NCBI GenBank assembly: GCA_017395085.1
Contig: JAFPWF010000017.1
Coordinates: forward strand, 1 to 64,000
DNA length: 64,000 bases
Source of the DNA: Oscillospiraceae bacterium
GTDB lineage: Bacteria > Bacillota > Clostridia > Oscillospirales > Oscillospiraceae
Direction: 5' to 3'
Under the pieces are notes generated by a model. It had not been told where the DNA came from and made no database searches. It saw nothing but the letters and a program-made list of their open reading frames with translations. Positions 713 to 23,242 of this stretch are shown in pieces. A program made the position numbers and the translations under genes. Numbering within the stretch: position 1 is the stretch's first letter; each line of letters opens with the position of its first letter.

Positions 713-720
713 CACACGGA

Positions 721-1336: not shown

Positions 1337-1338
1337 CT

Positions 1339-1794: not shown

Positions 1795-1795
1795 T

Positions 1796-2442: not shown

Positions 2443-2444
2443 AT

Positions 2445-3113: not shown

Positions 3114-3125
3114 GGAGCGTGACGC

Positions 3126-3542: not shown

Positions 3543-3565
3543 CAGAGGAGGAAAGTTCTCCTCTG
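3530..3565 (-). terminator. intrinsic terminator (hairpin gcagaggag/ctcctctgc plus a U-run on the - strand)
   Basis: Perfect 9-bp stem followed, on the reverse strand, by TATTTTTTATA. It ends the antisense two-gene cassette. Confidence 0.45.
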
Positions 3566-3585
3566 CGGACGTAACGCTTTTCCTG

Positions 3586-4877: not shown

Positions 4878-4892
4878 CTATGCACCTCCGCA

Positions 4893-4925
4893 AATACCGA
4901 TTTGTCAGCGTGATTATACCATCTG
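4893..4925 (-). promoter_or_regulatory. putative promoter of the antisense radical-SAM cassette (extended -10 TGGTATAAT)
   Basis: The reverse complement reads ttcaat-N15-tggtataat, followed by a GGAGG RBS and the ATG. Confidence 0.3.
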
Positions 4926-4950
4926 CTCCGCATATTGAAAAGAAAGAATC

Positions 4951-5484: not shown

Positions 5485-5516
5485 AAAAACAGAGCAGCAC
5501 TCACTGCTCTGCTTGG
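5484..5516 (-). terminator. intrinsic terminator (cagagcag/ctgctctg hairpin with an A/U run)
   Basis: 8-bp stem. The reverse complement gives the hairpin followed by TTTTTTT. Confidence 0.45.
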
Positions 5517-5695
5517 ATTGGTTCAGAATCTCTAATAGGATGAAAATACTTGTAAAACTCAAATTCATCTGTAATCCAAATCTGTTTCCCATCTTGATAA
5601 ATTACCCAACCATCGAGACAAGGCGCACATTCGTATAATACGTCAAAAACAATTGGCGAGTTTTCCGGTGGGTTAAAACATCTGAATTTCTTCAT
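5501..5695 (-). CDS. small hypothetical protein (antisense moron in the tail module)
   Basis: 64-aa ORF with its own terminator. Weak support. Confidence 0.3.
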   Translation of the reverse strand: MKKFRCFNPPENSPIVFDVLYECAPCLDGWVIYQDGKQIWITDEFEFYKYFHPIRDSEPIQAEQ

Positions 5696-5759
5696 AATAC
5701 ATCACCTAATTCTTCTTCTAGTTCAGATTATACCATTACATCAATCTGGTGAAAACCCC

Positions 5760-7076
5760 ATGCCATCTATTACTTTTGAAACTGAAGCCGCAAATTACGA
5801 GGCTTCCGCCATCGCCCTCCGCTCGCTGACAAAGGAATACACCAAGCTCAACCGGGTCATCGTGCAGACCGAGAAGCAGCTTTTGAAGTTCGACGAGATC
5901 AACCGCCTCGTCGCTTATGCCGACAAACCCGCCTCAGCCGGCAGGACGTCCTCCGGTCGCAGCAGTTCCTCCAAGTCAGCCTCAAAGACTACCACGCCCA
6001 AGACGACAACCGGCACCGGCTCCGGGGAGAAAAAGCCCTACATGCCCTCCACGCGTGACACTTCCGCCTCGCTGCCGCTGCACCTCGCCATCAAGGACAT
6101 CTTCTTCGAGTGGGGCGACCTCAACTGGGAGGTCATCCTCATGAAGCTGATTGCCGGCGTGAACGCCATCGGCCTCGGGGTGATCGGCCTGGTCGCAGCG
6201 GGGCCCGCAGGCCTTGCCCTCGGCCTCACGGCGGGGCTCCTGTTCAGCATCCTTGCGGACGCCACCATCTTCAACTTTGACGGAAAGGTCCAGCCGGAGG
6301 AACTGCGCAAGGCGCTCTACGCGCTGCTGCCCGTGGCGGGGGCGGGGGTCGGCCTCATCGCCGGCGGGCCCGCCGGTGCGCTCATCGGGCTTGCGGTCGG
6401 CACCTTCCTGAGCCTGAAGCTCATCGGGCTCGACTGGAGCGAAGCCGAGCGGCAGCTTACGCAGTTCTTCACCGACCTGCACGACTTCTTCGACCTGCGC
6501 TTTCAGAGCGTCAGCAGGTTCTTCCATGAGAGCATCGACGGCCTCAAAACCTGGTGGTCAAACCTCAGCTTCCGGGGCTTCCACCTCAGCCTGCCGCACC
6601 TGCATGTACAGTGGGAGATGTTGAACGCCAATTCCGCGCTGGCCCGCTTCCTCGGCATCAGCGCCGTGCCGCACCTCAGCGTGCAGTGGTACGCGAGAGG
6701 CGGCATCGTGAACGGCGCCACCCTCATCGGCGCGGGGGAACAGGGGAAGGAGGCCGTCATCCCGCTGGAAAGGCATACCGAGTGGATCCGCCTGGTGGCG
6801 AGCGAGCTCCGCGCGCAGCTGGAGGCCCTCGGCCCCTCGCACACCTGGGCGCTCTATCCTCTGCCGGCGGCCGCAACCGGTTCCCTCATTCCGCCTTCCG
6901 CCCTGCAAAGCGAAAGCCGCCCATCTCTGGACGGCCTTGCCGATGCGATTGTCAGCGCAATCTCCACGCTGCAGGCGGTTTCTCCCGAGCCCGTGATCCG
7001 CGTCTACCTCGACGGAAAGCAGCTCTCCGACGCGGTCACCAGGTACCAGCGCCGGGACGCGAGAGCATCAGGCTGA
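5760..7076 (+). CDS. tail tape-measure-like protein
   Basis: N-terminal coiled coil, a Ser/Thr/Lys-rich linker, and a Gly-rich hydrophobic segment (GLGVIGLVAAGPAGLALGLTAGLL) typical of tape-measure proteins. At 438 aa it is short for that family. Confidence 0.5.
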   Translation: MPSITFETEAANYEASAIALRSLTKEYTKLNRVIVQTEKQLLKFDEINRLVAYADKPASAGRTSSGRSSSSKSASKTTTPKTTTGTGSGEKKPYMPSTRDTSASLPLHLAIKDIFFEWGDLNWEVILMKLIAGVNAIGLGVIGLVAAGPAGLALGLTAGLLFSILADATIFNFDGKVQPEELRKALYALLPVAGAGVGLIAGGPAGALIGLAVGTFLSLKLIGLDWSEAERQLTQFFTDLHDFFDLRFQSVSRFFHESIDGLKTWWSNLSFRGFHLSLPHLHVQWEMLNANSALARFLGISAVPHLSVQWYARGGIVNGATLIGAGEQGKEAVIPLERHTEWIRLVASELRAQLEALGPSHTWALYPLPAAATGSLIPPSALQSESRPSLDGLADAIVSAISTLQAVSPEPVIRVYLDGKQLSDAVTRYQRRDARASG

Positions 7077-7337
7077 TCGTCTGCCGAAGTATCCCGGGTT
7101 CACTTCTCCGTAAGTGCTGTGGATGTCTTTCAGCTCAAACAGCAGGTACGGGTCGCTTGCAAAATAGCTTCCAAGTCTGCAGCCTTGCATCGTGACGGAT
7201 CCGTCCCTGTCGACGGTAAAGATACGCAGCGTGTTTTCCGTTCTGCCGTCCTGATTCGTCAGGATGTATTCCTCCCGGTCTACCAGATAGTATAGCACTC
7301 TGGTGCTGGGCTTCAGTTTATAGTCAAGTTCTTTCAT
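7068..7337 (-). CDS. small hypothetical protein (antisense)
   Basis: 89-aa ORF between tail genes. It overlaps the tape-measure gene end by 9 nt. Confidence 0.25.
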   Translation of the reverse strand: MKELDYKLKPSTRVLYYLVDREEYILTNQDGRTENTLRIFTVDRDGSVTMQGCRLGSYFASDPYLLFELKDIHSTYGEVNPGYFGRRSA

Positions 7338-7363
7338 CTTTGGTCTCCAGTCTGTGAGGTATT

Positions 7364-7735
7364 ATGGCAAACTTTGTTTTCACCGTGAATAACGTCAATC
7401 TTCTGCCGTATATCGTCGAGGACGGGCTCAAATGGACCCGCTTCGACGTCGAGGCGCCGGACACCGGGCGTACGCTGGACGGAGTGATGCACCGGGGCAG
7501 GGTGGCCGTCAAGGTCCGGCTGGACGTGACCTGCCGCCCCCTCACGGCCGCGGAGACAGCCACCGTCCTGAACGCCATCGCGCCGGAGTTCGTCACTGTC
7601 CGCTACGAGGACCCGATGTTTGGATCCGTCACCAGGACGATGTACTCCAACAATATCCCGGCTCTCTGCGCCACCGTCTATCCTGACGGCACCGCCCGCT
7701 GGGAGGGGCTGGCTTTCCCATTGATCGAGCGCTGA
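7364..7735 (+). CDS. phage tail component (hypothetical)
   Basis: 123-aa ORF in the tail module. Confidence 0.4.
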   Translation: MANFVFTVNNVNLLPYIVEDGLKWTRFDVEAPDTGRTLDGVMHRGRVAVKVRLDVTCRPLTAAETATVLNAIAPEFVTVRYEDPMFGSVTRTMYSNNIPALCATVYPDGTARWEGLAFPLIER

Positions 7736-7793
7736 TCCTACCAGAGAAAGATGAAGGGGAACTGAATCTTCCATGAACAATTCGTGAATCCGT

Positions 7794-9458
7794 ATGATTT
7801 CTACTTCTGCCCTTTATAACCAGATCCTCTCCGGCCCGCACGCCAAAGAGGTCAAAATCAACATCGCCGGGGCCGATTACGGCATGGACGTGCTGACGTC
7901 CCTGCGCACTTCGCTCGCGCCCTTTGGGAGCGGCTCGCCAACGATCGGCCTCGCTCCTGCGGCGGAGATCACGGCCTCGCTGTACCTGGCCTCGTCCAAT
8001 GTGCCACGCATGGCGGCCTTAAGGCCTTATGTGCGGCTGGTCAACGACACCCAGCAGTCCGAATGGCTGCCGCAGGGCCTGTTCTATGTTGACACCCGGC
8101 AGCAGGATGAATCGGGACTCCTGACCCTGCACGGCTACGACGGCATGCTGAAGGCCGAGCGCCCCGCGCCGTATTCCACCCTGCAGTGGCCCGCGCTGGA
8201 CATGGATGTGGTCGCCGAGATCTGCAGCATCCTCGGCTTTTCCGTGGACGCGAGGACCACGGCGATTATGACTTCCGGGTTCCGTATTAATCTTCCGTCT
8301 CAGTACACCATGCGGGAGACGCTGAAGTATATTGCGGCGCTCTACGGCGGCAGCTTTGTCCTCACGGCCTCCAACACGCTGCGCCTGCTGCCTCTGTGGC
8401 AGCGGGGGAGTTCTGCCAATCACGACCTGACGGCCTCCGTGCAGTCCGTCTCCGTCAGCCCGGCCTTCCCGGCCTGCACGGGCATCCGCTTCCTGACGGA
8501 GGACAATGCGGAGTTCTTTGCCGGCAGCGAGACGGGCTACGTATATGAGATCGCTTCGCCCTTTGCCACGCAGGCCGCGGCCAATGCGCTCTTAAACCGC
8601 ATGCAGGGCTTTGTCTACCGGCCGTATTCCGCGGAGGGTGCAATCCTCAACCCGGCCGCCGAGCCGGGGGATACGGTGCTGATCCCCTCCGGCAATACCA
8701 CTGCGCTCTCGTCCCTCTTCACCCTCTCCCGCAGCTTCGACTCGCTCTTCCCGGCGGATTGCTCCGCCCCGGAGGACGAGGAGCTCGACCACGAGTACCC
8801 GTATGAGTCGACTGCGGACAGGGTATACGAGAGGAAACTGCAGAATATGCAGTCGGAGCTCAACGTCCAGGCGCAGGCCATCTCCGCCAAGGTCAGCCGC
8901 ACGGGCGGGGATTCCCGCAGCTTCGGCTGGTACCTGGACGCCGACCGCTTCTCTCTCTACTCCGACACGGTTGAAGTGATGCATGTGGATGATGAGGGGC
9001 TCACAGTCCGGGGTACGATCACAGCCGACGCCGGCTGTATCGGCGGCTGCGACATCGAAAACGGCACCCTGAAGATCGCGAACGCCAACATCGAGAACCT
9101 GAACGCCTCCAAGATCACCGCGGGAACCCTGAACGTGGACCGCATCGGCACCGGCTCGATCACCGGCGGGAAGATCGCCGACGAGACCATCGAGTCATAT
9201 AACCTGGACGACGGCTCCGTGGTGAACCGGGTACTGGGCTCGAGCTCCGTTTCCTACGGCAAGACGAGCTTCCAGACCACGCTGGACCAGGTGGGTACCA
9301 ACAAGGCGAACATCGACGTGCTGTACGGTTACTTCACGGGCTACGCGCACTTCAGCCAGCTGGAGATCGACAACGGCTTCTACTACGGGGGCAAAACAAT
9401 AGGCATCGCCACCGCAACCATCAGCGGAAGAACTCTACAATATTTGGGGTGGGTATAA
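7794..9458 (+). CDS. phage tail protein (tail tip/minor structural protein)
   Basis: 554-aa ORF following the tape-measure gene. Size and position are typical of a distal tail/tail-associated protein. Confidence 0.5.
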   Translation: MISTSALYNQILSGPHAKEVKINIAGADYGMDVLTSLRTSLAPFGSGSPTIGLAPAAEITASLYLASSNVPRMAALRPYVRLVNDTQQSEWLPQGLFYVDTRQQDESGLLTLHGYDGMLKAERPAPYSTLQWPALDMDVVAEICSILGFSVDARTTAIMTSGFRINLPSQYTMRETLKYIAALYGGSFVLTASNTLRLLPLWQRGSSANHDLTASVQSVSVSPAFPACTGIRFLTEDNAEFFAGSETGYVYEIASPFATQAAANALLNRMQGFVYRPYSAEGAILNPAAEPGDTVLIPSGNTTALSSLFTLSRSFDSLFPADCSAPEDEELDHEYPYESTADRVYERKLQNMQSELNVQAQAISAKVSRTGGDSRSFGWYLDADRFSLYSDTVEVMHVDDEGLTVRGTITADAGCIGGCDIENGTLKIANANIENLNASKITAGTLNVDRIGTGSITGGKIADETIESYNLDDGSVVNRVLGSSSVSYGKTSFQTTLDQVGTNKANIDVLYGYFTGYAHFSQLEIDNGFYYGGKTIGIATATISGRTLQYLGWV

Positions 9459-9721
9459 TTATGCTTCAATTAAAAACCGCGCAGGGTTTCACCCTGCCTA
9501 TTACATGGATCGGAGTCAGCGACTTTGACGGATCCCTCCGCTTCGAGACCCCGGAGACGGACCTTGCGACCCTGTTCTCTGTCTTCAGCGATCCTTCGCA
9601 CACATCCGCCCTGACCCGCATCTTCGATGAAGACGAAAAGACCTTCTCCGGCTTTACCGCCTTCAAAGGCATAGAAAAAATGGCCGGAGGCGCCATTGTA
9701 ATCCGTCTTCTTCCTGGTTAA
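9449..9721 (+). CDS. hypothetical phage protein
   Basis: 90-aa ORF overlapping the previous stop (ATGA-type coupling). Confidence 0.4.
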   Translation: MGIIMLQLKTAQGFTLPITWIGVSDFDGSLRFETPETDLATLFSVFSDPSHTSALTRIFDEDEKTFSGFTAFKGIEKMAGGAIVIRLLPG

Positions 9722-9845
9722 TCGAATAAGAGCCCAGTGTAACGGGTCTTATTCGAAAAAGGACGAGCAGCGTAGCGACTGAGCTTTCCTGACGCTTCAG
9801 GGAAGCGAATGGATACGAAGCTTGTGAGGACGCGGGAACGGGAAC
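9721..9845 (+). repeat. intergenic structured element, copy 4
   Basis: Same family (gagcccagtgtaacgggtctt...gagctttcctgacgcttcagggaagcgaatggatacgaagcttgtgaggacg). Confidence 0.6.
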
Positions 9846-9890
9846 TACGGTGATCCGGCTGATGCCCGCATAATCTTTTTGGAGGACAAA

Positions 9891-10352
9891 ATGAAAGAAT
9901 TCTGGACGATGATTCAAACCGCGTTTTTCGGCCTGGGCGCATGGCTCGGCTATTTCCTCGGCGGCTGCGACGGCCTGCTCTATGCCTTGGTGATCTTTGT
10001 CGCCGTCGACTACGTCACCGGCGTGATGTGCGCCGTGGCGGACAAGAAGCTCAGCTCCGCGGTGGGCTTCAAAGGCATCTGCCGCAAGGTGCTCATCTTC
10101 CTGCTGGTCGGACTTGCGCATATTCTGGATACGCAGATCCTGCATGAAACCGGCATTCTCCGCACCGCCGTCATCTTTTTCTTCCTGTCCAACGACGGGC
10201 TGAGCATCCTGGAGAACGCCGCGCACCTAGGCCTACCCATCCCGCAGGCGCTGAAGGATGTGCTGGAGCAGCTGCACAACCGAGCGGAGAAATCCGGTGA
10301 GCCGGAAACGGTTATTGCTGATTATGTAGGAGAACACGAATCCCATGAGTGA
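9891..10352 (+). CDS. phage holin (holin_4-like family)
   Basis: Small protein with transmembrane segments (FFGLGAWLGYFLGG..., LIFLLVGLAHIL). It overlaps the downstream lysin gene. Confidence 0.65.
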   Translation: MKEFWTMIQTAFFGLGAWLGYFLGGCDGLLYALVIFVAVDYVTGVMCAVADKKLSSAVGFKGICRKVLIFLLVGLAHILDTQILHETGILRTAVIFFFLSNDGLSILENAAHLGLPIPQALKDVLEQLHNRAEKSGEPETVIADYVGEHESHE

Positions 10353-11154
10353 AGCAGCCCAAAAGGTTATTGCCATCGCATTGGACGAGGTCGGCTACCG
10401 GGAGAAGGCTTCCAACGCTGCTCTCGACGATCCGCTGGCCAACGCCGGCAGCGGCAACTGGACCAAGTACGCGAGGGATCTTGCAGCCGCCGGCTACTAC
10501 AATGGTGACAAGAGCGCGTGTCCTTGGTGCGAAATTTTTACAGACTGGTGCTTCTGGAAGGCTTTCGGTCCGGACGGTCAGCGCATCCAGTGCCAGACCG
10601 GCGACCTGGGTGCTGCCTGCATCTACTCCATGCAGTATTACCGGCAGCAGGGGAGATGCGATCAGAATCCCAAAGAGGGGGATCAGGTCTTCTTTTATGG
10701 CGGCGGCACCGTCGGCCACACCGGCATCGTGGTTGAGGTATCCGAAAGCAGTATCACCGTGGTCGAGGGCAACAGCTCCGACCGGGTGCAGAAGCTGAGC
10801 TACCCCCGCAGCAGTTCCGTCATTGCCGGATACGGGCACCCTTGGTACAAAGAGAACGTTCCGGCAGAAGAAGAAATTGAGACGCTATCGGCTCCCATAG
10901 AGCAAACCTGTTCTGTTCTTCTTCCTCTCCTCAAACGCGGTGCCACCGGCACCGCCGTCGAGTCCGCCCAGGTCCTCCTGATCCACCGCGGCTATTACTG
11001 TGGAGGTCGTAAGAACCTCCTCGGCCGCGAGACGCCAGACGGCGACTTCGGCCCCGCAACCGAAAAAGCCGTCAGGGACTTCCAGACCCTGAAAAGTCTG
11101 GAGCCTGACGGCAAAATCGGGGCAGATAGCTGGACAGCGCTGATAACTGAATAG
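10345..11154 (+). CDS. endolysin: CHAP-domain peptidase with a C-terminal peptidoglycan-binding domain
   Basis: N-terminal Cys/His CHAP signature (CPWCEIF...VGHTGIVVEV). C-terminal PG_binding_1-like repeat (LKRGATGTAVESAQVLL...DGDFGPATEKAVRDFQ). Confidence 0.75.
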   Translation: MSEAAQKVIAIALDEVGYREKASNAALDDPLANAGSGNWTKYARDLAAAGYYNGDKSACPWCEIFTDWCFWKAFGPDGQRIQCQTGDLGAACIYSMQYYRQQGRCDQNPKEGDQVFFYGGGTVGHTGIVVEVSESSITVVEGNSSDRVQKLSYPRSSSVIAGYGHPWYKENVPAEEEIETLSAPIEQTCSVLLPLLKRGATGTAVESAQVLLIHRGYYCGGRKNLLGRETPDGDFGPATEKAVRDFQTLKSLEPDGKIGADSWTALITE

Positions 11155-11516
11155 AGATCACGCCGCTGCAGCGTCGTGCAACCCGCAACTCCAGTGCAAA
11201 TGCTTTTGCAACTGTACAGAGCTGCGGGTGTTTTTGTTCTGTATCGCGTTCGTGCAATATTACAATTTTTGGCAAATAAGCATATGACTTTCATCAGCAT
11301 GCCCCTTTGATGCATTCTTGAAATGATACTCACAGGGACACTGTCGTTTCGTTTTTCCACATCCCACATCTTGTGTTTTCTGACGAAAACTCCGGATGAA
11401 AGCAAAGACTTCTTGTTGCGTGTTGAATACATTTGTAGTAGTATAACATTGGTTTAATGGATCTTGACGAAACAACTACATATGTAATACAATAGTAAAT
11501 GAATTAGGAGCTGTCT

Positions 11517-11708
11517 ATGGCTGAATCAAAGTTTCAGATCACACCGAAAAAATACATTGGAGAATCGTCAGTGGTTTCCCTGCGCATGCCGAAGGACATG
11601 CTGCGGGACATTGATGAGATTGCGGCAAAAACAGGGCGTACGAGGAACGAGTTTATGCTGATGAGCTTGGAATTTGCCTTGGATCATCTTGAGATTGAAG
11701 AGAAATAA
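11517..11708 (+). CDS. ribbon-helix-helix (CopG/Arc-like) DNA-binding protein
   Basis: 63 aa. A beta-strand-like stretch followed by two helices (SLRMPKDMLRDIDEIAAKTGRTRNEFMLMSLEFAL). Confidence 0.45.
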   Translation: MAESKFQITPKKYIGESSVVSLRMPKDMLRDIDEIAAKTGRTRNEFMLMSLEFALDHLEIEEK

Positions 11709-11726
11709 CACGGGGAGTTGAGTATC

Positions 11727-14429
11727 ATGCCCATCATCAAATGCAAAATGTGCGGCGGCGATATAGACCTCGCTGCGGATAAGACTTTTGGAACCTGCGA
11801 ATACTGCGGCTCCACCATGACGCTGCCAAAGGTGTCGGACGAACAGAAGGCGGCCGCATTCAACCGCGGCAACCACTTCCGGAGGATCGGCGAGTTTGAC
11901 AAAGCTCTTGCCGTCTATGAGCGCATCGTCGCGGAGGACGACACCGATGCGGAGGCGCACTGGTGCTGCGCCCTCTGCCGCTTCGGCATCGAGTATGTGG
12001 AGGATCCCGCCACCTATGAATGGATGCCGACCTGCCACCGTGCAAGCTTCGACAGCTTCCTGGAGGATGTGGACTACCTTGCCGCGATAGAGAATTCAGA
12101 CGGTATAACGCGCCGTCAGTACCAGAAGGATGCCGCGAAGATTGCAGAGGTGCAGCGCGGCATTCTGGCGACCTCCCAGAACACGGAGCCGTATGACGTA
12201 TTTATCAGCTACAAGGAACTGGATGAAAACGGCAGCCGTACCCGCGACAGTATTTTGGCGCAGGAAATCTACTACCGGCTGACGGAAAAGGGCTGGCGGG
12301 TGTTCTTCTCACGCATATCCCTGGAGGACGTGCCCGGCACGCAGTATGAGCCGTACATCTTTGCTGCTCTGAATAGTGCAAAGGTGATGATTGTTGTTGG
12401 AACCAGCGCAGAAAATCTCAATGCGGTGTGGGTCAAGAACGAGTGGAGCCGCTTCCTATCCATGATGCGCAAGGATCGCTCGAAACTCCTGATTCCCTGC
12501 TACCGCGACATGGATCCTTATGATCTTCCGGAGCAGCTCGCGGTGCTGATGAGCTATGACATGGGGAAGATCGGTTTTGTGCAGGATCTGATCCGCGGCG
12601 TGGATAAAGTGTTGACCGCGGAGAAGAAGGAGCCGGTTAAAGAGACGGTGAAAGAAACCGTTGTCGTCCAGCAGCCCGGCGGCGGGCCGAATGTTACGGC
12701 GCTTCTCAAACGCGGCCAGCAGGCGCTTGAGGACAGCGAATGGGACAAGGCCAGAGAATACTATGATCAGGTTCTCAACATGGATGCTGAGAACGCAGAG
12801 GCGTTCCTCGGTCTGTTCCTGGCAGGCGAAAAGTGTGAAGAAGAGAACGCTTATATAGAGAGGGCCTGCACGAAGAAAGGCGCGACAGAGACCCTGAATG
12901 TTCCGTCCGCGGCTGACCGCATCAATGAGAATGCTGCAAAGTACAAGCTCGACCATTACCTATTCGATGGCGACATTCGAAAACTGTTCGATTATGATTT
13001 ACAATATCCAACCACACTCCGGACGCAAAAGCTTGTCGCAGAGCAGGAAAAAGCAAGCTTTCAGAATGATAGGAATCTCAACCGGGCATTTCGCTATGCA
13101 AAGGGCGATGTGGCAGCGAGACTGAACGCATTCAAAACGCAGTTGTTTGCCGGGTTGGACCGTAACGTCACACAAGCAGAGGAACAGGAAGAAGCAGCTA
13201 GAGAAGAGAAGAAAGCTGCATACGAGGTGTTCCTGGACAATGCGGAAAATCTTGCACAGGAGAAAAACGAGCAGGCACAGGCGAGGAAAGAAGAAGATTA
13301 TCAGGCACTTTGCCGCCGTATTTCAGAAGCGAAAACGATAAAAGAATTTGACGTTGCAAAATATAAGCTTTTCCCCTACTTCAATGACTATAAGGACAGT
13401 GCGGAGCAGTACAAGCGCATAGAAGAAGGAATTGCAAGGTTGGAAAAAGAGGCTGCAGAAGAAGCGGAAGCGGAACGCCTGCGCAAGGAAGTCGAAGCAA
13501 AAGCCGTCGCGGAAGAAGCTGAGCGTCAGGAGGAGCAGAAGCGTATTGCAGCAGAAAAGGCAGATAAGAAACGTAAAAAAACGATCGCAACTAACACGCT
13601 GATCATTGTTGCCTGCATTGTGTTTGTAACCGTGTTGAAGTTCGTGATCATTCCTAACCAGAGACTCAATAAATCAGTGGCAATGATTGATGCTGGCGAT
13701 TACAAGGCGGCATACCTTCTTCTAGATGGTATGGATTATAAAAATAGCAAGGAGCTTCAGGAAAGCATAAAATTGCAATACGAAAAAGAATGCATTTCTG
13801 AAGCGCAGGTCCGTTCATATGTTCCTTTTGGTTCTTATGAACAGGATAACGATTCCGAAAACGGGAAAGAAGACATAGAGTGGCTTGTGCTAGCAAAGAA
13901 AGATGATAGAATCCTAGTCATTAGCAGATATGCTCTAGACTGCCAGCGATTCAACACTTCAGCGACAAGTGTTACATGGGAAACCTGTTCAGTGCGTAAA
14001 TGGCTAAATGAAACATTTCTGAACAACGCTTTTTCCGAGGAAGAGCGTGCCATGATTCCCAATATGATTGTCACTGCGGACAATAACCCTGACTACAGCA
14101 TAAGTCCAGGAAAAAGCACGACGGATCAGATGTTCCTGTTTAGCATTAGAGAAGCGAATAACTATTTCAATACAAATAATGCACGGCAGTGTCAGGGAAC
14201 TCCTTACTGCTTTGCACAGGGGGCCTATAAAGACAACAGTGGTAATTGTTGGTGGTGGTTGCGGACCCCTGGATTTGATACCGAACACGCTGCGATCGTT
14301 CGTAGTGACGGCTCCATCTATTCCACCTCGGATATTAACGGGGATGGCTCTTTATATTCCAGCGGTTATGGAGTCACTCTCAAAGATGTAGCCGTCCGTC
14401 CTGCGATGTGGATAGATTTGACGACATAA
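11727..14429 (+). CDS. membrane-anchored TIR-domain protein with an N-terminal zinc ribbon + TPR module and a C-terminal extracytoplasmic domain
   Basis: CKMCGG..CEYCGS zinc ribbon. TIR motifs (YDVFISYKELD..., WVKNEWSRF with conserved Glu). Long coiled coil. Transmembrane helix (TLIIVACIVFVTVLKFVII). DUF6273-like C-terminus. Confidence 0.7.
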   Translation: MPIIKCKMCGGDIDLAADKTFGTCEYCGSTMTLPKVSDEQKAAAFNRGNHFRRIGEFDKALAVYERIVAEDDTDAEAHWCCALCRFGIEYVEDPATYEWMPTCHRASFDSFLEDVDYLAAIENSDGITRRQYQKDAAKIAEVQRGILATSQNTEPYDVFISYKELDENGSRTRDSILAQEIYYRLTEKGWRVFFSRISLEDVPGTQYEPYIFAALNSAKVMIVVGTSAENLNAVWVKNEWSRFLSMMRKDRSKLLIPCYRDMDPYDLPEQLAVLMSYDMGKIGFVQDLIRGVDKVLTAEKKEPVKETVKETVVVQQPGGGPNVTALLKRGQQALEDSEWDKAREYYDQVLNMDAENAEAFLGLFLAGEKCEEENAYIERACTKKGATETLNVPSAADRINENAAKYKLDHYLFDGDIRKLFDYDLQYPTTLRTQKLVAEQEKASFQNDRNLNRAFRYAKGDVAARLNAFKTQLFAGLDRNVTQAEEQEEAAREEKKAAYEVFLDNAENLAQEKNEQAQARKEEDYQALCRRISEAKTIKEFDVAKYKLFPYFNDYKDSAEQYKRIEEGIARLEKEAAEEAEAERLRKEVEAKAVAEEAERQEEQKRIAAEKADKKRKKTIATNTLIIVACIVFVTVLKFVIIPNQRLNKSVAMIDAGDYKAAYLLLDGMDYKNSKELQESIKLQYEKECISEAQVRSYVPFGSYEQDNDSENGKEDIEWLVLAKKDDRILVISRYALDCQRFNTSATSVTWETCSVRKWLNETFLNNAFSEEERAMIPNMIVTADNNPDYSISPGKSTTDQMFLFSIREANNYFNTNNARQCQGTPYCFAQGAYKDNSGNCWWWLRTPGFDTEHAAIVRSDGSIYSTSDINGDGSLYSSGYGVTLKDVAVRPAMWIDLTT

Positions 14430-14772: not shown

Positions 14773-15693
14773 ATGGATACTATGGCGTTGTCATCAGTTG
14801 AATTAAGAAAATACAATCCAAGTACTCCAGATGAATTTTACAAATTGGCCGCTAGGACAGCAAGCTTCTATTATCACACACGATTAGAGACGGCTATAAA
14901 GATTCTTTCTGGGGAAGAAATAGTGTTTTTTATCAGCCCGATAAGCAACATGAATGATGAAAACGAAATAATTCTTCACGAAAGAGAACAAAATTGCACC
15001 TATATACTTTGCTTTTCGCATATACAAACTGAAAGCATTCCCATGTGGTATTTGTATAGTGGGATAACAGGAGAGGGATCACGAATAGGATTCACGCCAG
15101 CAAGAATGAGAGATATTCTTGAAAGCGCTATTGAAGTATACCCTGTCTATCGGAGGCAGATAGATACTTCCAAATCGTTACACATCGACGATGACTACGC
15201 TGTTGAGTATGGTTGGGTATTCTATCGCAATAAAGAGGACAATTCTATCAAGTATAAAGGAGACAAGTGTATTATACGTGACTCAATGCATTCATTTGAA
15301 AAAGGCAATTTTTTTGTCAAAGACAGTGAATGGAGTTATGAAAAAGAATTTCGTATCGTATTTAAACTAAATCGCACCTTACCAGAGCAAATAGCACTCG
15401 TGCTAAATAAAAAGAAGATGATGGCAGATGATGGATTGAAAGTGACACTATCGCCAAGGATTAGTGAGGCAGATATGGAAATGATAAAAGCCAAAATGGG
15501 TTTACCGGCTAAGCACATTTCAACAAGTAAGATAAAAGCCAAAATGGATTTGCTTAGCCGAAATCGGCAGAGTATAGTGGAGCATTTTCCGGAGGTCGTT
15601 TCTGGACTAAATATGGATGAACTAGAGTCAATCATCAAGCAAGTTGAAGCCGAACTCATTGTGCAGAAAGAAAAGGAGTTAGCCCATGTCTAA
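14773..15693 (+). CDS. DUF2971-like hypothetical protein
   Basis: Low-GC gene. The SPISNMNDENE segment resembles the DUF2971 'FNDPxE' motif. Confidence 0.35.
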   Translation: MDTMALSSVELRKYNPSTPDEFYKLAARTASFYYHTRLETAIKILSGEEIVFFISPISNMNDENEIILHEREQNCTYILCFSHIQTESIPMWYLYSGITGEGSRIGFTPARMRDILESAIEVYPVYRRQIDTSKSLHIDDDYAVEYGWVFYRNKEDNSIKYKGDKCIIRDSMHSFEKGNFFVKDSEWSYEKEFRIVFKLNRTLPEQIALVLNKKKMMADDGLKVTLSPRISEADMEMIKAKMGLPAKHISTSKIKAKMDLLSRNRQSIVEHFPEVVSGLNMDELESIIKQVEAELIVQKEKELAHV

Positions 15694-17521
15694 ATTTGTA
15701 ATCGAATGTCCCAATTGTGGGAAATATGCGGAAGCGCGAACCGGCTTTTTCGCCCGCAAGAAGCTCGACTGTTCCTGCGGTTACACCATCAATGTCCGCA
15801 CAGATAAGCTTACTGGTCGGGAGTGTCCGCACTGTGGCAACATGGTCGTTTTCGACCAAAGTGAAGGTGAAAGGGCAAAATGTCCCGTTTGCGGTGAGCC
15901 GATCAACACCATGACCGAGCAGGACAAGATGGCAGAGTTTTCCTGCGCCCAGTGCGGCGTGCGCCTGCGCACGAATAAGAGCGCGGAGAAGTACGTCTGC
16001 CCGGTCTGCGACTTTGAGAATTTCATTCCCGAGCGGCTCATGAGCGAGCAGATCAAGAAGGACGGTCTCGCCAGCATCATCAAGTACGAGGGCGATAACG
16101 ACACCCTGGTCTGGAAGCATCCCATCGAGGACTTCAACTACGGCTCGCAGCTCATCGTCCATGAGAGCCAGGAGGCGATCTTCTTCCGGGACGGCCAGGC
16201 GCTTGATCTTTTCGGACCGGGCCGCTACACGCTGGAGACGCAGCAGCTCCCGCTCCTGGAGAAGGTTTATAAGCTTCCCACCGACACCGAGGGCACCTTC
16301 CACAGCGAAGTATACTTTATCAACAAGGCCGTGCAGATGGCCATCAAGTGGGGCACGCCCGAAAAGGTGCGCTTCATCGATCCGCTGACCGGCGTTCCGC
16401 TGGAACTCGGCGCGTCCGGGGAACTGAACCTGATGGTCTCCGACTCCCGCAGGCTGCTCCTGAAGCTGGTCGGAACCATGAAGGGCATTGCCTGGGGCGA
16501 CAGTGAGGGTTTCACCAAGTCCGTACAGGCCTCTTTTCGCCCCCTGATCACCACGGCGGTCAAGGCAAACCTCTCCAGCGTCATCAAGGACAACGCCATC
16601 GACCTGTTGGAAGTGGACGAGAAGCTGGAGATGATCTCCGAACACTTGCGTGAGAAACTGCTTCCCGGCTTTGAGGAATACGGTCTTACGATCCCGCAGT
16701 TTTATGTGACGAGCATCGTCCTGCCAGAGAACGATCCCAACTTCAAGCGCATCCGCGAACTGCACACCATCACCCTGCAGGCGAGAGCGTACCAGGCAGA
16801 AGCGACCGTCCTGACGGCGAAGGCGCAGAGCGAGGCGCAGTACCGCACGGCACAGGAGCAGAGCAAGGCAGCCATCGAGGCTGCCCGCCGCGGCGCCGTG
16901 CTGGAGCAGCAGACGACCGAGACCGAGATTGCCCGCCGTGAAGCGGAGCGGAGGGTTATTGCCGCCCAGGCGGATGCACAGGCGCAGCGCATGGCCGGTC
17001 TGACCGAAGCGGAAATCATGGCCGCCAAGGGTTACAGCCAGAAGGATGTACTGCAGGCCGAAGTGCAGAAAGCCTATGCCGAAGGCATCGGCAACATGGG
17101 ACCGGCCATCTCCGGCGGCGGCGGAAGCGGTATCCTTGGGGATATGCTCGGCCTCGGGGTCGGCATGGCTGCGGCAAGCACTGTCGCGCCGCAGATCGGA
17201 GAGATGATGCAGGGCTTTCGGGCTCCCGGGGCAGCAGCACCTGTTGCCGCGTCAGGCGGCTGGGACTGCCCGGGCTGCGGTACCAGGAATATCCAGAGCC
17301 GCTTCTGTCCGGAATGCGGCGCAAAGAAACCGTCGCCTGCGGCAGCACCCGCAACGGACTTTTGGGATTGCCCCTCCTGTGGAACTAAGGGCATCACGAG
17401 TAAGTTTTGCCCCGAGTGCGGTGCCAGAAGGCCTTCTCTGACCTGGACCTGCCCGGACTGCGGCACTGCGGATATCAGGAGCAAATTCTGCCCCAACTGC
17501 GGCAGAAAAAAGGATGAATAA
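15686..17521 (+). CDS. SPFH/band-7 (flotillin-like) protein with N-terminal zinc ribbons, a coiled coil and three C-terminal zinc-ribbon repeats
   Basis: Multiple CxxC pairs at the N-terminus. SPFH-like core. Ala/Gln-rich coiled coil. Three repeats of W(D/T)CPxCGT..I.S(R/K)FCPECGA at the C-terminus. Confidence 0.6.
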   Translation: MSKFVIECPNCGKYAEARTGFFARKKLDCSCGYTINVRTDKLTGRECPHCGNMVVFDQSEGERAKCPVCGEPINTMTEQDKMAEFSCAQCGVRLRTNKSAEKYVCPVCDFENFIPERLMSEQIKKDGLASIIKYEGDNDTLVWKHPIEDFNYGSQLIVHESQEAIFFRDGQALDLFGPGRYTLETQQLPLLEKVYKLPTDTEGTFHSEVYFINKAVQMAIKWGTPEKVRFIDPLTGVPLELGASGELNLMVSDSRRLLLKLVGTMKGIAWGDSEGFTKSVQASFRPLITTAVKANLSSVIKDNAIDLLEVDEKLEMISEHLREKLLPGFEEYGLTIPQFYVTSIVLPENDPNFKRIRELHTITLQARAYQAEATVLTAKAQSEAQYRTAQEQSKAAIEAARRGAVLEQQTTETEIARREAERRVIAAQADAQAQRMAGLTEAEIMAAKGYSQKDVLQAEVQKAYAEGIGNMGPAISGGGGSGILGDMLGLGVGMAAASTVAPQIGEMMQGFRAPGAAAPVAASGGWDCPGCGTRNIQSRFCPECGAKKPSPAAAPATDFWDCPSCGTKGITSKFCPECGARRPSLTWTCPDCGTADIRSKFCPNCGRKKDE

Positions 17522-17562: not shown

Positions 17563-18261
17563 ATGGCGAACTGCGCTAATTGCGGAAGAAGAATTACAGC
17601 TTTTAACTCTGATCCTCACTTTAATTTCAGCGACCAAACGTTGTGTCAGAACTGTTCGGACACTTTTAATTCGTTGCTGATGGATAATAAAATGGGTTGG
17701 AACAGTGTAGGTATCACAAGAAGATTTATTAGACAGAATAAAGACAGACTCAGATTAAATGATTCAGGTATTGAGTTTCTGCTTTCGTATGCTGACTACA
17801 TCCAAAAAAACAATCCGGATGGGGCGGAAGATGAAGAAGATGAGGAAAAGTTAGAGGAGGAAGAACTTAAAAGAAAAGAGGAAGACTTGGAAAAAAGAAT
17901 CGCTCTGTCCAAGATGCTGATCTCTTCCGGGTTCAATTTTGAAGGATATCGTATCGTAAAATATTCGGGTTATATTTCGGGTGACGATGCCATTCAGATT
18001 CCCCGAAGTGGTATATTTGATCGGGGAAGGAATGGCGAAAACCTGACGGATGCTCTTGTTAAGATCAGGAGAAGAGCGCTGATCGAATTAAAAGAAGCTG
18101 CGTATGATCTCGGCTGCAATGCGGTAATCGGCGTAGACTTTGACTATCTTACGCTGGATCCGGAAACGGCGTCACTGACAGGCGGAACTGTCTACGAACC
18201 GTATGTCATCTGCGTTACCGCAAACGGCAACGCTGTGGTGATCGAGAAAATCGAGGATTAA
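17563..18261 (+). CDS. zinc-ribbon protein with a C-terminal YbjQ/UPF0145-like domain
   Basis: CANCGRR..CQNC at the N-terminus. The C-terminal GYRIVKYSGYISGD...LGCNAVIGVDFDY matches the UPF0145 pattern. Confidence 0.5.
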   Translation: MANCANCGRRITAFNSDPHFNFSDQTLCQNCSDTFNSLLMDNKMGWNSVGITRRFIRQNKDRLRLNDSGIEFLLSYADYIQKNNPDGAEDEEDEEKLEEEELKRKEEDLEKRIALSKMLISSGFNFEGYRIVKYSGYISGDDAIQIPRSGIFDRGRNGENLTDALVKIRRRALIELKEAAYDLGCNAVIGVDFDYLTLDPETASLTGGTVYEPYVICVTANGNAVVIEKIED

Positions 18262-18263
18262 AC

Positions 18264-18527
18264 ATGCTGGCAAATGCAATAAAATGCCCGATCTGCGGCG
18301 GGAAAGAATTTGAGGAAAACAAGGGGGTCCGGACCTGCCTCTATTGTGGTACACAGTTTCAGATTCCCAAAGAGGAACTGCCGAAAAAGAAATCGGAAAT
18401 TGCTCTGAACAGCGATGTGGAAAGACTCCTTGATAAGTGCAGAAAAGATCCGAAGAACGCACGAAAGTATGCGAATCTGATACTGGATATTGATCCTACA
18501 AATCGCGATGCCCTGAAGTATCTGTGA
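18264..18527 (+). CDS. small zinc-ribbon + TPR-like protein (resembles the TIR protein's N-terminal module)
   Basis: CPICGGKEFEE..CLYCGT followed by a helical TPR-like tail. Confidence 0.4.
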   Translation: MLANAIKCPICGGKEFEENKGVRTCLYCGTQFQIPKEELPKKKSEIALNSDVERLLDKCRKDPKNARKYANLILDIDPTNRDALKYL

Positions 18528-18553: not shown

Positions 18554-19240
18554 ATGAGTAAAAACAAGTTGCGTTTCTATGTCGCCATAGCGATCATTTT
18601 TGTGGTTCTTACCGTGATCGCATTTGCATTGCCACTTGCAAAAACAGCCACTTTTTGGATCAGCTACATCTTCGCTGTGATTGCCCTGGCAGTGCAGATT
18701 TATGCCTATCCCAAGGCGTTTGAGGGAGAGAGCGTTAAGAGCAAATTCTACGGGTTCCCGATCGCTCGGATCACCACAATCTATCTTATCGCCCAGCTTG
18801 TTCTCAGCCTGATTTGCATGCTGGCAGGGAAGTGGGTGCCGGTCTGGATTCCGCTGATCCTGTCTGTGGTGATGTTGGGGGCTGCCGCGGTCGGTTTCAT
18901 TGCTGCCGAAGGAATGCGCGATGAAGTGGAGCGGCAGGATGTGGTGCACAAAGCCAATGTAGGCACCATGCGTGCGCTGCAGTCAAAAGCCGTGTTTATA
19001 ACCAACCAGTGTGAGGATGCATCTACCAAGAAGGCACTTGATGCCTTTGCGGAAGCACTGCGTTTCTCTGATCCGGTCAGCAGCGATGCTCTTGCCGACA
19101 TAGAGGAAAACCTCACCGGCTTGGTGGAAGAACTGGGCAATGCCGTTCTTGACAAGGATTACTCCGCCGCTCAATCGCTCTGCACCAAAGCATCCACCAT
19201 CCTTGCCGACCGCAACCGCATGTGCAAGCTGAATAAATAA
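18554..19240 (+). CDS. integral membrane protein (hypothetical)
   Basis: Four predicted transmembrane helices. RBS GGAAAGAGAGG. Confidence 0.5.
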   Translation: MSKNKLRFYVAIAIIFVVLTVIAFALPLAKTATFWISYIFAVIALAVQIYAYPKAFEGESVKSKFYGFPIARITTIYLIAQLVLSLICMLAGKWVPVWIPLILSVVMLGAAAVGFIAAEGMRDEVERQDVVHKANVGTMRALQSKAVFITNQCEDASTKKALDAFAEALRFSDPVSSDALADIEENLTGLVEELGNAVLDKDYSAAQSLCTKASTILADRNRMCKLNK

Positions 19241-19285: not shown

Positions 19286-19320
19286 AAACCGAGAGGTTAA
19301 TCCCTCTCGGTTGTTTCTTA
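19286..19320. terminator. bidirectional intrinsic terminator (aaccgagagg-ttaatc-cctctcggtt)
   Basis: Perfect 10-bp stem flanked by A-run and T-run, between convergent genes. Confidence 0.55.
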
Positions 19321-19800
19321 TTGCTTGCCACCACAATATTTGCAAAATGTGCTATCCGCTTCAATTGTTTTACCGCAATGTCGGCAATACTTTTTACCTT
19401 CTGATAATACCGAAGATTTTGTATCATCGTATATTCTCGTTCCTCTTTCTTTGTACTCGTTGAGGCAGTTAGTTAATGTATCAAGAATTTCACCAAGTGT
19501 TCTCATGTTTTTGCTTGTGTAAGGAAAATCAAAAAAATTTGAACTTGGTGAGATCCCATTTGCACATAGTATACATTGTCTAACAAGATTGGAAGTATAA
19601 TCAAATAGGTAAAACTTTTTAATATCTCTATACCAAAATGTTGTATTGTATGGTACTTCTTTTTTGTTGATGACACCCTCCAACCAGACTTTTGTAATCG
19701 TAACTTGGTCATCATATATTTCTACTTTACCAGACACAAAACCTTTAAAAAAATCACAATTCTCTTTTGTGAGCAAATAGCTTTTCTTAAAGACGGACAT
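19318..19800 (-). CDS. hypothetical protein with a C-terminal zinc ribbon
   Basis: 160 aa, very low GC. CRHCGKT..CKYCGG at the C-terminus. AAGGAG RBS. Confidence 0.45.
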   Translation of the reverse strand: MSVFKKSYLLTKENCDFFKGFVSGKVEIYDDQVTITKVWLEGVINKKEVPYNTTFWYRDIKKFYLFDYTSNLVRQCILCANGISPSSNFFDFPYTSKNMRTLGEILDTLTNCLNEYKERGTRIYDDTKSSVLSEGKKYCRHCGKTIEADSTFCKYCGGKQ

Positions 19801-20297: not shown

Positions 20298-21182
20298 GTG
20301 TGTAAAGCTTTGCCAGGATTAACAATAGGAAACTTTATTTCACTACTTATTCCAGCAGTTATAATTAGTATCATCCCGCTTGGAATTATAAATTTCATTG
20401 CAGGAATAAGTGAGAATAAGTTTGCAACAAGTAACGCAGGAATGATAATCATAAATGGCGGTGGCGTATTATTAATTACATTTTTGTTATATCTTGGTAC
20501 ATATACTCCATGGAAGAATCAAAACACAGAGACAACGAATCAAATTGAGAATCAAATTGAGGTTGTGACTCCACCGGTCAGTTCCTATAGCATCGAGAAA
20601 AAAGTAGAAAAACAAATTGAAAAAGATGGTTTGAAATCCGATGGGAAGATCCATGTATACCTGGTAGGCAGCGGGGAGACTGTGAAAGCGAAAAAAAGCA
20701 GTTCCATCAAGAGCATGACATATTATGAGGAATCGGATCACCTGATTATCAATTTCAACGGAAAAGAATATGTATTTGCAAATGTCAGTTCGTCTCTCTG
20801 GAAATCCTTCAAGGAAGCTTCCTCATCTGATGCATTCTACGATAGTCATTTCAAAGGGAATAAGTCTTATTGGATCAATGACTATAACGGCAAAAACGGC
20901 GATAAAATAGTTATGGAACATGTGAGTTCGACCGCACAATCGTACAGCTCGTCGGACTATGGCTATTCAAGATCTTCAAGCAAGAGCATCGAATCAGAAT
21001 ATGCTGAATGTAAAGATTGTGGCAGAATATACAGCAAAGATGAGATGTGGGAATTAGGCGGATATTATATCTGTGAGAACTGCGTTGAGGATGGGGAGTA
21101 TATCTGGGATGAAGGTTCTGGAGAACTATATTATGAAGATGATTATTGGGATATGATGCATGAGCGGGAATTTGGTTATTAA
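20298..21182 (+). CDS. membrane protein with a KTSC domain and a C-terminal zinc ribbon
   Basis: N-terminal transmembrane helices. KTSC-like block (IKSMTYYEESDHLIINFNGKEYVFANVSSSLWKSFKEASS). CKDCGR..CENC. Confidence 0.45.
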   Translation: MCKALPGLTIGNFISLLIPAVIISIIPLGIINFIAGISENKFATSNAGMIIINGGGVLLITFLLYLGTYTPWKNQNTETTNQIENQIEVVTPPVSSYSIEKKVEKQIEKDGLKSDGKIHVYLVGSGETVKAKKSSSIKSMTYYEESDHLIINFNGKEYVFANVSSSLWKSFKEASSSDAFYDSHFKGNKSYWINDYNGKNGDKIVMEHVSSTAQSYSSSDYGYSRSSSKSIESEYAECKDCGRIYSKDEMWELGGYYICENCVEDGEYIWDEGSGELYYEDDYWDMMHEREFGY

Positions 21183-23154: not shown

Positions 23155-23242
23155 AAGTTTTGTTGCAATCCCACTGTTTTTATAGGTATATCTCATGATA
23201 AAACTTGTTAAACAGTTCTGTGTTTGATATAATATTCAATTA

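Follow-up and report, generated by a model that had tools for sequence, protein, structure and literature searches.

To our knowledge, the sensors of the known bacterial TIR immune systems are cytoplasmic, and the invader is sensed inside the cell. Dore et al. 2024 described sensors in which a C-type-lectin-fold domain, hypermutated by a diversity-generating retroelement (DGR), is fused to conflict effector domains including TIR (PMC10907252). These sensors are built on STAND or MoxR NTPases, occur in multicellular bacteria and are mostly predicted to be cytoplasmic, some being periplasmic or secreted (PMC10907252). In Bacillus subtilis, YdjI/SamI combines an SPFH domain of the Band_7_1 type, a region of low complexity and a zinc ribbon at the C-terminus; YdjH recruits it to the membrane, as does YdjG, which has two N-terminal zinc ribbons and a transmembrane segment (PMC8581546, PMC11237479, bioRxiv 10.64898/2026.02.06.704340). 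Here we describe a locus in a stretch of 64,000 nt from an Oscillospiraceae bacterium (GCA_017395085.1, contig JAFPWF010000017.1, positions 1–64,000 of the forward strand), which as a whole is called the window. The feature under study (11517–14429) comprises a ribbon–helix–helix (RHH) gene and the gene of a TIR protein with a single membrane helix. Both belong to a larger operon, of which they form the 5' end; it is widespread in gut and rumen Clostridia and seems not to have been described. No description of the operon or of a link between TIR and SPFH proteins was found in the searched literature, most subscription journals lying outside it, and a prior description is possible. We are highly confident in the structural and genomic statements as a whole, that is, the observed architecture, conservation, gene order, operator motif, DGR targeting in relatives and mobile context. 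We read the operon as a conflict or defence system in which an outward-facing receptor triggers a TIR NADase or TIR signalling on an SPFH platform, and we give this reading an even chance.

The large open reading frame (ORF) ends at 14429, as the sequence-only reading had it. Called mechanically, it begins at TTG 11718 and encodes 903 residues. The ribosome-binding site GGGGAG, at 11712–11717, lies 9 nt upstream of ATG 11727, and a public database protein (P0001) of 900 residues is 100% identical. The true start is therefore almost certainly ATG 11727, giving a protein of 900 aa rather than 903 (11727–14429 including the stop codon, + strand, as for the genes of the operon below). The gap between the RHH and TIR genes is therefore 18 nt and not the 9 nt first given. 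Residues are numbered on the 900-aa protein (903-aa numbering minus 3). Its assignment as a single-pass membrane TIR receptor draws on the ORF, Pfam, hydropathy, alignments and an AlphaFold2 (AF2) model of residues 1–368 (mean pLDDT 82.5).

The N-terminal cytoplasmic module (residues 1–152; 11727–12182) begins with a zinc ribbon (residues 1–33). Its cysteines C6, C9, C24 and C27 are invariant in an alignment of 59 N-module sequences from related loci (A1). In an alignment of database proteins (A4), the same holds for C24 and C27, and the conservation of C6 and C9 is 90% or more. In the AF2 model the ribbon is followed by TPR-like helices (residues 39–85), a beta-hairpin with the invariant motif GIEYVED...PTCHR and further helices up to residue 152. 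A single-sequence search of PDB sequences with this module was swamped by designed TPR proteins. Behind the TIR domain, AF2 secondary structure and TPR matches point to a second TPR-like hairpin pair (residues 321–367), which leads into a long helical region (12687–13580 together). Residues 468–618 of this region form an almost proline-free predicted helix with 46% charged residues that reaches up to the membrane. The only hydrophobic helix of the protein lies at residues 619–643 (13581–13655; Kyte–Doolittle maximum 2.93). Because KKRKK precedes this helix, the positive-inside rule places the N-terminal 618 residues in the cytoplasm. Hydropathy, this rule and the extracellular nature of the C-terminal domain families together predict an N-in/C-out topology. 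No signal peptide or secretion motif was found in the receptor. Exactly one transmembrane helix is present in 178 of 242 relatives of at least 600 aa. The predicted extracytoplasmic region (residues 644–900; 13656–14426) contains the C-type-lectin-like domain DUF6273 (Pfam, E 4.9e-28). The zinc ribbon, the TPR-like helices, the long charged coiled coil, and a single membrane helix with the TIR domain inside and a C-terminal domain outside had all been proposed in the sequence-only reading, and each is borne out, the topology as a prediction.

The TIR domain spans residues 155–297 (12189–12617). It had been allowed at first that this segment might fail to match TIR profiles; it matches Pfam TIR_2 with an E value of 3.9e-11 and 43.9 bits, above the gathering score of 28. 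A Foldseek search of the AF2 model against the PDB retrieved SARM1, C. elegans TIR-1, L7, TIR-STING, AbTir (TM-score 0.77), RPP1, RPV1 and SPARTA TIR-APAZ, and the model has the flavodoxin-like fold of TIR domains. The motif WVKNEW, named in the sequence-only reading as the context of the catalytic glutamate, is located at residues 235–240. When a TIR-only profile was compared with PDB sequences, AVWVKNEWS aligned with 'DSKWCLMELAE' of L6/L7 and 'NSCWCQYELY' of TLR15. These matches are weak (TLR15 0.003, L7 0.03) and sufficient to locate the glutamate. In plant and other NADase TIRs, the aligned helix carries the catalytic glutamate (the WxxxE motif). In the window protein this position is E239 (codon 12441–12443), which is invariant in A1, A4 and a further alignment of locus sequences (A5), as is W235. 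W240 is invariant in both locus-sequence alignments and at least 90% conserved in the third. The pattern WV[KR]NEW recurs in 248 of the 257 relatives with a TIR domain. That the WxxxE glutamate is nearly invariant across hundreds of diverged paralogs favours catalysis, and its intact position suggests that the TIR domain is catalytically competent. Profile, predicted fold and glutamate position, that is, every in silico membership test, place the segment among the TIR domains.

The 900-aa protein has at least 8000 relatives in the databases, and the observation lies well outside what chance would give. With its N-terminal 149 residues as the query, 2165 cluster representatives (clusters at 50% identity) were found at E ≤ 1e-30. 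Among the matches listed, the module stands at the N-terminus in 150 of 150 representatives. A TIR domain follows it in 131 of the 132 newly retrieved representatives of at least 450 aa (146 newly retrieved in all); the sequence-only reading had proposed to look for this combination of N-module and TIR domain in other genomes. Family members range from 600 to 1500 aa in length. The cytoplasmic 40% of the receptor is 75–89% identical in many relatives whose C-termini are wholly different. These alternative C-terminal domains include DUF6273, RCC1 propellers, Listeria–Bacteroides repeats with BspA-type leucine-rich repeats (LRR), periplasmic-binding-protein domains and Sel1.

Ectodomains of this kind could belong to surface adhesins or host-interaction proteins, with the cytoplasmic part as an anchor. 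BtpA/TcpB-type bacterial TIR proteins are proposed to subvert host Toll signalling, and delivery of the TIR domain to the host for this purpose is a variant of the same idea. The BspA-type LRR, the Listeria–Bacteroides repeats and the lectin-like domains are indeed adhesin-like, and the hosts are gut commensals. However, the TIR domain is predicted on the cytoplasmic side of a single membrane helix, and the protein has neither signal peptide nor secretion motif. The part that would serve as anchor is the best conserved of the protein while the ectodomains are swapped, which is unexpected for a mere anchor. The conserved linkage to the SPFH and four-transmembrane (4-TM) genes described next also speaks against an adhesin, and we consider this explanation very unlikely.

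Species genomes of GTDB were scanned for loci of the TIR family. At least 585 matches were obtained, and the best 80 of these were analysed. Nearly all of their hosts belong to Clostridia of the gut or rumen (Oscillospiraceae, Ruminococcaceae, Lachnospiraceae, Christensenellales and Acutalibacteraceae), among them the cultured [Clostridium] aerotolerans DSM 5434 and Pseudoflavonifractor capillosus. Several taxon labels of metagenome-assembled genomes (Chloroflexi, Bacteroidaceae, Phycisphaerales) are probably binning errors. Locus ORFs were called mechanically, and partners were counted by BLASTP of the window proteins against all ORFs of the 80 loci; the 38 that measure 15 kb or more are referred to as long loci. 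The 80 loci contain 137 TIR-family genes. At least two are present in 35 loci, and up to five stand in tandem. All cluster genes point in the same direction, and the same layout was seen in independent metagenome contigs. From these comparisons, the conserved unit is an optional RHH gene, one or more TIR receptor genes, an SPFH/zinc-ribbon gene, a 4-TM gene and again TIR receptor genes, with one to five TIR paralogs in total. In the window, exactly this set and three lineage-specific inserts described below are bracketed by a promoter-like site (11464–11493) and a bidirectional terminator-like hairpin (19287–19312) with a 10-bp stem and six GC pairs, found on both strands.

The first core partner is an SPFH protein of 611 aa (15686–17521; Pfam Band_7_1, 2.3e-36; Zn_ribbon_3 and DZR). 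Its gene is present in 56 of the 80 loci and in 33 of the 38 long loci. The protein is 82–87% identical between loci whose TIR proteins are only 53–58% identical. It consists of three N-terminal zinc-ribbon pairs, the Band_7_1 domain, a coiled coil, a glycine-rich segment (residues 470–510) and three C-terminal zinc ribbons. No convincing transmembrane helix was found in it. The second core partner is a protein of 228 aa (18554–19240), recognised by BLASTP across the loci and modelled with AF2. Its gene occurs in 51 of 80 loci and 30 of 38 long loci, nearly always directly after the SPFH gene. The model (pLDDT 82.5) predicts four transmembrane helices and a cytoplasmic four-helix tail. The 4-TM protein belongs to no Pfam or NCBIfam family, and none of its 1430 relatives has a Pfam domain.

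The RHH gene (11517–11708) encodes 63 aa, as the sequence-only reading stated, and matches Pfam RHH_1 with E 4.5e-6, above the gathering score. The match covers residues 20–47. About 15 residues follow, probably the second RHH helix. Upstream, a consensus scan found a promoter-like TTGACG-18-TACAAT (11464–11493; 10 of 12 positions match), whose function is inferred. A perfect palindrome, TACATATGTA (11477–11486), lies in its −35/−10 spacer. A further candidate operator copy with the same TACAnnTGTA motif, TACATTTGTA (11428–11437), is located farther upstream, and the two copies are 49 nt apart. In 25 of 80 loci an RHH gene stands at the head of the cluster; among the 38 long loci it is present in 16. 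TACAnnTGTA is found 28–75 nt upstream of its start in 17 of the 25, where the estimated chance occurrence is at most about 0.04 per locus. An RHH fold and a palindromic operator at the gene's own promoter, the two features of a CopG/RHH repressor, thus occur together. Since the conserved palindrome overlaps the promoter, the RHH protein is most likely an autoregulated repressor of the operon, with putative binding to this motif.

The sequence-only reading had taken the RHH and TIR proteins for a functional pair, the former as a possible regulator or antitoxin-like partner. Regulation agrees with the candidate operator. As an antitoxin, the RHH protein would neutralise or repress a toxic TIR protein in a two-gene toxin–antitoxin or abortive-infection pair. 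The two genes are adjacent with the short gap given above, the RHH protein has the RHH_1 fold, and the NCBIfam antitoxin models of RelB, VapB and BrnA give weak matches to it, far below their cut-offs. One sample, described below, has an inactivated TIR gene beside an intact RHH gene. Against this, the RHH gene is absent from 55 of the 80 TIR loci, and it stands directly before the TIR gene in 16 loci and before the SPFH gene in 9. The obligate pairing of a type II toxin–antitoxin system is therefore not observed. Arrays of two to five TIR genes share at most one RHH gene, and with 63 aa the protein leaves little beyond the RHH_1 match. The operator accounts for it as a transcriptional regulator, and the strongly conserved partners of the TIR gene are the SPFH and 4-TM genes, not the RHH gene. 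Because it is missing from most TIR loci, common to several TIR genes and sometimes placed before the SPFH gene, the RHH protein is probably not a dedicated antitoxin. We regard a toxin–antitoxin pair as improbable.

Some relatives of the receptor are diversified. The fold of DUF6273 is C-type-lectin-like, and in Faecalibacterium phages the domain is frequently targeted by DGRs, the variable region being located at its C-terminal tip (PMC10743442, PMC11792537). Complete DGR cassettes are present in two of the 80 loci (L050:10001–14477 and L069:10001–14535), where bAvd, a template repeat and an RVT_1 reverse transcriptase come after a TIR–transmembrane–DUF6273 gene. The template of 125–127 nt differs from the 3' end of the gene at 17 and 20 positions, respectively, of which 16 and 19 are at template adenines. 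By this sequence signature, both receptors are genuine DGR targets, diversified in the segment between WWLRSPG and VRPALW. In the window protein, the segment between WWWLRTPG and VRPAMWI occupies the position of this variable region (alignment A2). The phage DUF6273 targets, such as the tentaclins and those of a Faecalibacterium prophage, carry the same Pfam domain with the same variable tip. Those are receptor-binding or decoration proteins of the virion, whereas here the domain belongs to a cell-membrane protein with a predicted cytoplasmic signalling part of 618 aa.

The window copy might likewise be an actively diversified DGR target, with the retroelement acting in trans from elsewhere in the genome. 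Its close relatives, with ectodomains 56–58% identical, are targeted at the same C-terminal segment, and in phages of Oscillospiraceae the DUF6273 domain is commonly targeted by DGRs (PMC10743442, PMC11792537). However, when only adenine-site mismatches were allowed, no template repeat matching the 3' end of the TIR gene was found on either strand of the 64-kb window. A tblastn search with the L050 reverse transcriptase and Avd likewise gave no match in the window. Near-identical contigs from other samples carry 0–1 substitutions outside the TIR domain, and the ectodomain is invariant. The missing template, the missing match to the reverse transcriptase and Avd and the missing ectodomain variation largely refute this idea for the window, and we hold it to be extremely unlikely.

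The window is a phage genome, and the TIR operon is its low-GC cargo. Positions 1–11154 encode phage structural and lysis proteins (major head, tape-measure-like and tail proteins, a holin at 9879–10352 and a CHAP endolysin at 10345–11154). From about 42.8 to 57 kb follow an S24 repressor (42837 onward), an M78 peptidase, a DNA polymerase, an exonuclease, a primase-helicase and a helicase. Between them lies a cargo island of about 31 kb (about 11200–42800) with a GC content of about 45%, compared with 56–63% in the flanks, and the TIR operon comes first in it. About 3 kb downstream of the operon stands a full type 4 BREX system, accompanied by a WYL (BrxR-like) regulator (22180–37766). It comprises BrxP (27166–29487, E 7e-207), BrxC (29507–33712), PglZ (33739–36096) and BrxL (36306–37766, E 1e-186), with two further genes upstream of BrxP (23243–26479, 1078 aa; 26483–27151). 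The same phage element is present in several metagenomes. Elsewhere, in L097, L100 and L102/L103, TIR–SPFH clusters are cargo of integrative mobilisable elements with MobA/relaxase, RepA_N or Rep_trans, Xis and integrase genes. One such element is inserted beside guaA, and ParE toxin–antitoxin pairs are inserted within some clusters. The operon is thus mobile and accessory, and a recognisable defence neighbourhood is present sometimes, not always. We rejected the description 'typically phage-borne', since the scan of viral contigs gave only two relatives.

Over 12.6 kb, one near-identical metagenome contig (L093) agrees with the window at 99.5% identity. Its segment 2164–5076, which corresponds to 11517–14429 of the window, differs by only four substitutions. 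All four fall within 112 nt of the TIR domain and all are non-synonymous: A214V, E229*, W240* and R251L, two of them stop codons. The RHH gene is intact, and the SPFH, 4-TM, DUF2971 and YbjQ genes are open. This is a single observation, and it gives a hint that the TIR protein has a cost, such as selection against an active TIR domain would produce.

Besides the core partners, some clusters have accessory genes. In the window, a DUF2971 protein of 306 aa (14773–15693; Pfam 2.6e-5) overlaps the start of the SPFH gene by 8 nt and matches the PADLOC candidate PDC-S31 (3e-7). It is lineage-specific, with counterparts in 2 of the 80 loci. It fills a variable slot that holds defence-like genes in related clusters (L015:9234-10181, L013:7198-7776, L050:9114-10004, L061:1927-2724). 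The slot contents include a SIR2_2/AbiH-like gene (7e-6), a weak HEPN match and DUF2971/PDC-S31 genes. Two further accessory genes within clusters match PDC-S31, and the SIR2_2 gene is found in one related cluster only (L015).

The closest characterised relative of the SPFH partner is YdjI/SamI of the PspA–YdjGHI/SamGHI system of B. subtilis. The window SPFH protein has the same Band_7_1 domain, low-complexity region and C-terminal zinc ribbon, and the TIR receptors share with YdjG the outline of zinc ribbon, cytoplasmic domain and one transmembrane segment. In contrast to YdjGHI, the zinc-ribbon membrane partner here carries a TIR domain and a large ectodomain, and the SPFH protein has three additional N-terminal zinc-ribbon pairs. 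Pfam and NCBIfam searches gave no match to PspA or TPM (YdjH) among the window operon proteins, the second membrane protein being the 4-TM protein.

This likeness raises the possibility of envelope or surface-sensing signalling without a role in phage defence. The receptors would then use their varied binding domains to sense extracellular polysaccharide, glycans of the host or the state of the cell wall. The SPFH and 4-TM proteins would act as a membrane-stress module like SamGHI/YdjGHI, and the TIR domain would serve as an oligomerisation scaffold or the source of a physiological second messenger. The RsgI anti-sigma sensors of Clostridium thermocellum are multi-paralog, and the receptors would be likened to them. 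Consistent with such a role, the Band_7_1 partner with its zinc ribbons resembles YdjI/SamI, whose membrane partners include a zinc-ribbon transmembrane protein. The lectin-like, RCC1, LRR_5/Flg_new and solute-binding ectodomains are typical of surface or ligand-binding proteins of gut Firmicutes. DUF6273 is also the N-terminal domain of a secreted immunoglobulin A protease, many loci lie among housekeeping genes, and there is no PADLOC match to the core proteins scanned. Several observations are at odds with it. The WxxxE glutamate is (nearly) invariant across hundreds of diverged paralogs. The operon is repeatedly the cargo of a phage or of integrative mobilisable elements, and it stands beside BREX in the window. 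SIR2 and PDC-S31 accessory genes occur inside clusters, some members are diversified by DGRs, and the nonsense mutations of the near-identical contig are specific to the TIR domain. The clusters showed neither a PspA nor a sigma-factor gene. We consider the envelope explanation possible, though on the whole doubtful.

For the conflict and defence reading we propose the following mechanism. The RHH protein would bind the TACAnnTGTA palindrome over the promoter and hold the operon at a low level. The 4-TM protein would probably dock the soluble SPFH protein at the membrane, forming a sub-membrane platform, for which the recruitment of YdjI/SamI by its membrane partners is a precedent. On this platform, the SPFH protein may contact the zinc-ribbon/TPR module of the receptors and either corral them or keep them apart. 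The ectodomains would be clustered by a multivalent ligand outside the cell, for which a phage particle or some other foreign surface is the most plausible candidate. The cytoplasmic TIR domains, gathered on the platform or freed from it, would then oligomerise and cleave NAD+. As far as we know, oligomerisation is a prerequisite for all characterised TIR NADases. Depletion of NAD+, or a signal derived from ADP-ribose, would lead to arrest of the cell or of the infection. In the window, the phage-borne operon beside the type 4 BREX system would protect the lysogen. A more specific form of this reading is that swappable or DGR-mutated surface receptors, analogous to Toll-like receptors, detect a phage or foreign surface before DNA entry and signal through a competent TIR domain on a flotillin-like SPFH platform. 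We put this form forward tentatively and think it may well be wrong.

A number of observations weigh against the defence reading. The predicted TIR fold is equally close to the non-enzymatic adaptor TIRs TIRAP and MyD88, and the glutamate is also present in some non-catalytic TIR domains of Toll-like receptors; NADase activity is therefore not assured. The characterised protein closest to the SPFH partner serves envelope-stress signalling rather than immunity. No effector fold is recognisable in the 4-TM protein, and a Foldseek search of it against the PDB gave no match below E 0.1. A PADLOC-DB v2 scan (E ≤ 0.01) of the RHH, TIR, DUF2971 and SPFH proteins, the 4-TM protein lying outside that scan, found no match for the RHH, TIR and SPFH proteins and only PDC-S31 for DUF2971. 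DGR linkage is rare, at 2 of 80 loci, and the window has neither the template nor the DGR proteins searched for above. In the immediate flanks of the 80 loci, 141 ORFs match 164 Pfam families, mostly housekeeping. Genes of obvious defence or mobile-element type make up only about 7% (three integrases, two resolvases, two AbiH and one restriction–modification pair), and the survey found no conserved flanking neighbour. A defence-like setting is seen in the phage cargo beside BREX and in the relatives on mobile elements, and is not seen in most flanks. Close relatives were found on only two IMG/VR contigs. Finally, the 80 loci are the closest of the at least 585 matches, and frequencies may differ across the family.

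The enzymatic TIRs of immunity (SARM1, AbTir, plant TNL TIRs, TIR-SAVED, TIR-STING, SPARTA TIR-APAZ and ThsB) differ from the present protein in that a long stalk links the TIR domain here to the membrane, with a variable domain predicted outside the cell. An N-terminal zinc-ribbon/TPR module and an SPFH partner are also added. No SLOG, SAVED, STING, Ago or NB-ARC partner is present in the operon. With Thoeris, the operon shares the arrangement of several diverged TIR paralogs around one conserved non-TIR core. Here, however, the core is an SPFH/zinc-ribbon protein with a 4-TM protein, and the TIR proteins are membrane receptors of 600–1500 aa. The combination of a ThsB-type TIR protein with a ThsA effector of the SIR2–SLOG or TM–Macro kind was not found: PADLOC gave no Thoeris match, and Pfam finds no SLOG or Macro domain in the operon. 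On the PADLOC scan of the RHH, TIR and SPFH proteins, the system corresponds to none of the models, whether Thoeris, CBASS, Pycsar, SPARTA, Avs or any other. The antigen sensors of Dore et al. are alike in combining a hypermutable lectin fold with a conflict domain, and two relatives here are DGR targets. They differ in that the present receptors have no NTPase, a single membrane helix and an SPFH partner, occur in gut Clostridia and mostly lack a DGR, the window copy included. The layout of ectodomain, membrane helix and TIR domain is like that of animal Toll-like and interleukin-1 receptors but of opposite polarity: the TIR domain stands at the N-terminus and the ectodomain at the C-terminus (type II). 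The ectodomains of the two groups are unrelated, and the intact glutamate here suggests an enzyme rather than an adaptor. We treat the likeness to Toll-like receptors as an analogy and not as descent.

Other genes of the window touch the operon less directly. Lying between the SPFH and 4-TM genes, a zinc-ribbon/YbjQ_1 protein of 232 aa and an 87-aa CxxC protein (17563–18527; Pfam, NCBIfam) are lineage-specific inserts, each found in 0 of the 80 loci. Together with the DUF2971 gene (2 of 80), they were rejected as core members. The neighbourhood is rich in small zinc-ribbon proteins (17563–18527, 19318–19800 on the − strand, 20298–21182): the YbjQ_1 fusion, the 87-aa CxxC protein, a 160-aa protein on the opposite strand with a C-terminal ribbon and a membrane KTSC-domain protein with a C-terminal ribbon. 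The zinc ribbons of the receptor, the SPFH protein and these neighbours may form a shared docking module.

As phage cargo, an island of about 31 kb between the lysis cassette and the repressor and replication genes is unusually large. After the BREX genes, 37787–42801 encodes a class-V aminotransferase/cysteine-desulfurase-like protein, a RuvB-like AAA ATPase (weak PADLOC match to IetA), a DnaJ-domain protein, a HIRAN-domain protein and a second WYL regulator; this set could represent one more defence module. Scattered among the phage genes, an intergenic repeat of about 130 nt (60–90% identity, same orientation) occurs at 1205–1341, 2456–2591, 9701–9836 and 49645–49776, with a 58-nt core at 1795–1852. 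It might be a regulatory element, a terminator/antiterminator or a small RNA. Inside the phage structural module, a 294-aa radical-SAM gene lies on the − strand (3993–4877; Pfam annotation from the identical contig L002).

TIR-based conflict systems themselves are known. What appears new is an extracellular, membrane-anchored sensor with an SPFH partner in a system of this kind. The family is among the largest uncharacterised TIR families of the gut microbiome, and the proposed reading, if true, would supply it with a function. Bacteria would then have their first TIR immune system that senses outside the cell, and TIR and SPFH proteins their first functional link, tying SPFH scaffolds to TIR signalling. 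The E239A mutation, derepression through the RHH protein and ectodomain swaps would be the experimental handles. The receptors would also be a cellular, signalling-competent class of DGR targets, so that the old question of what cellular DGR targets do would become testable. A variable sensor outside the cell joined to a TIR domain inside would be a new mode of sensing, and it could allow phages to be stopped at adsorption.

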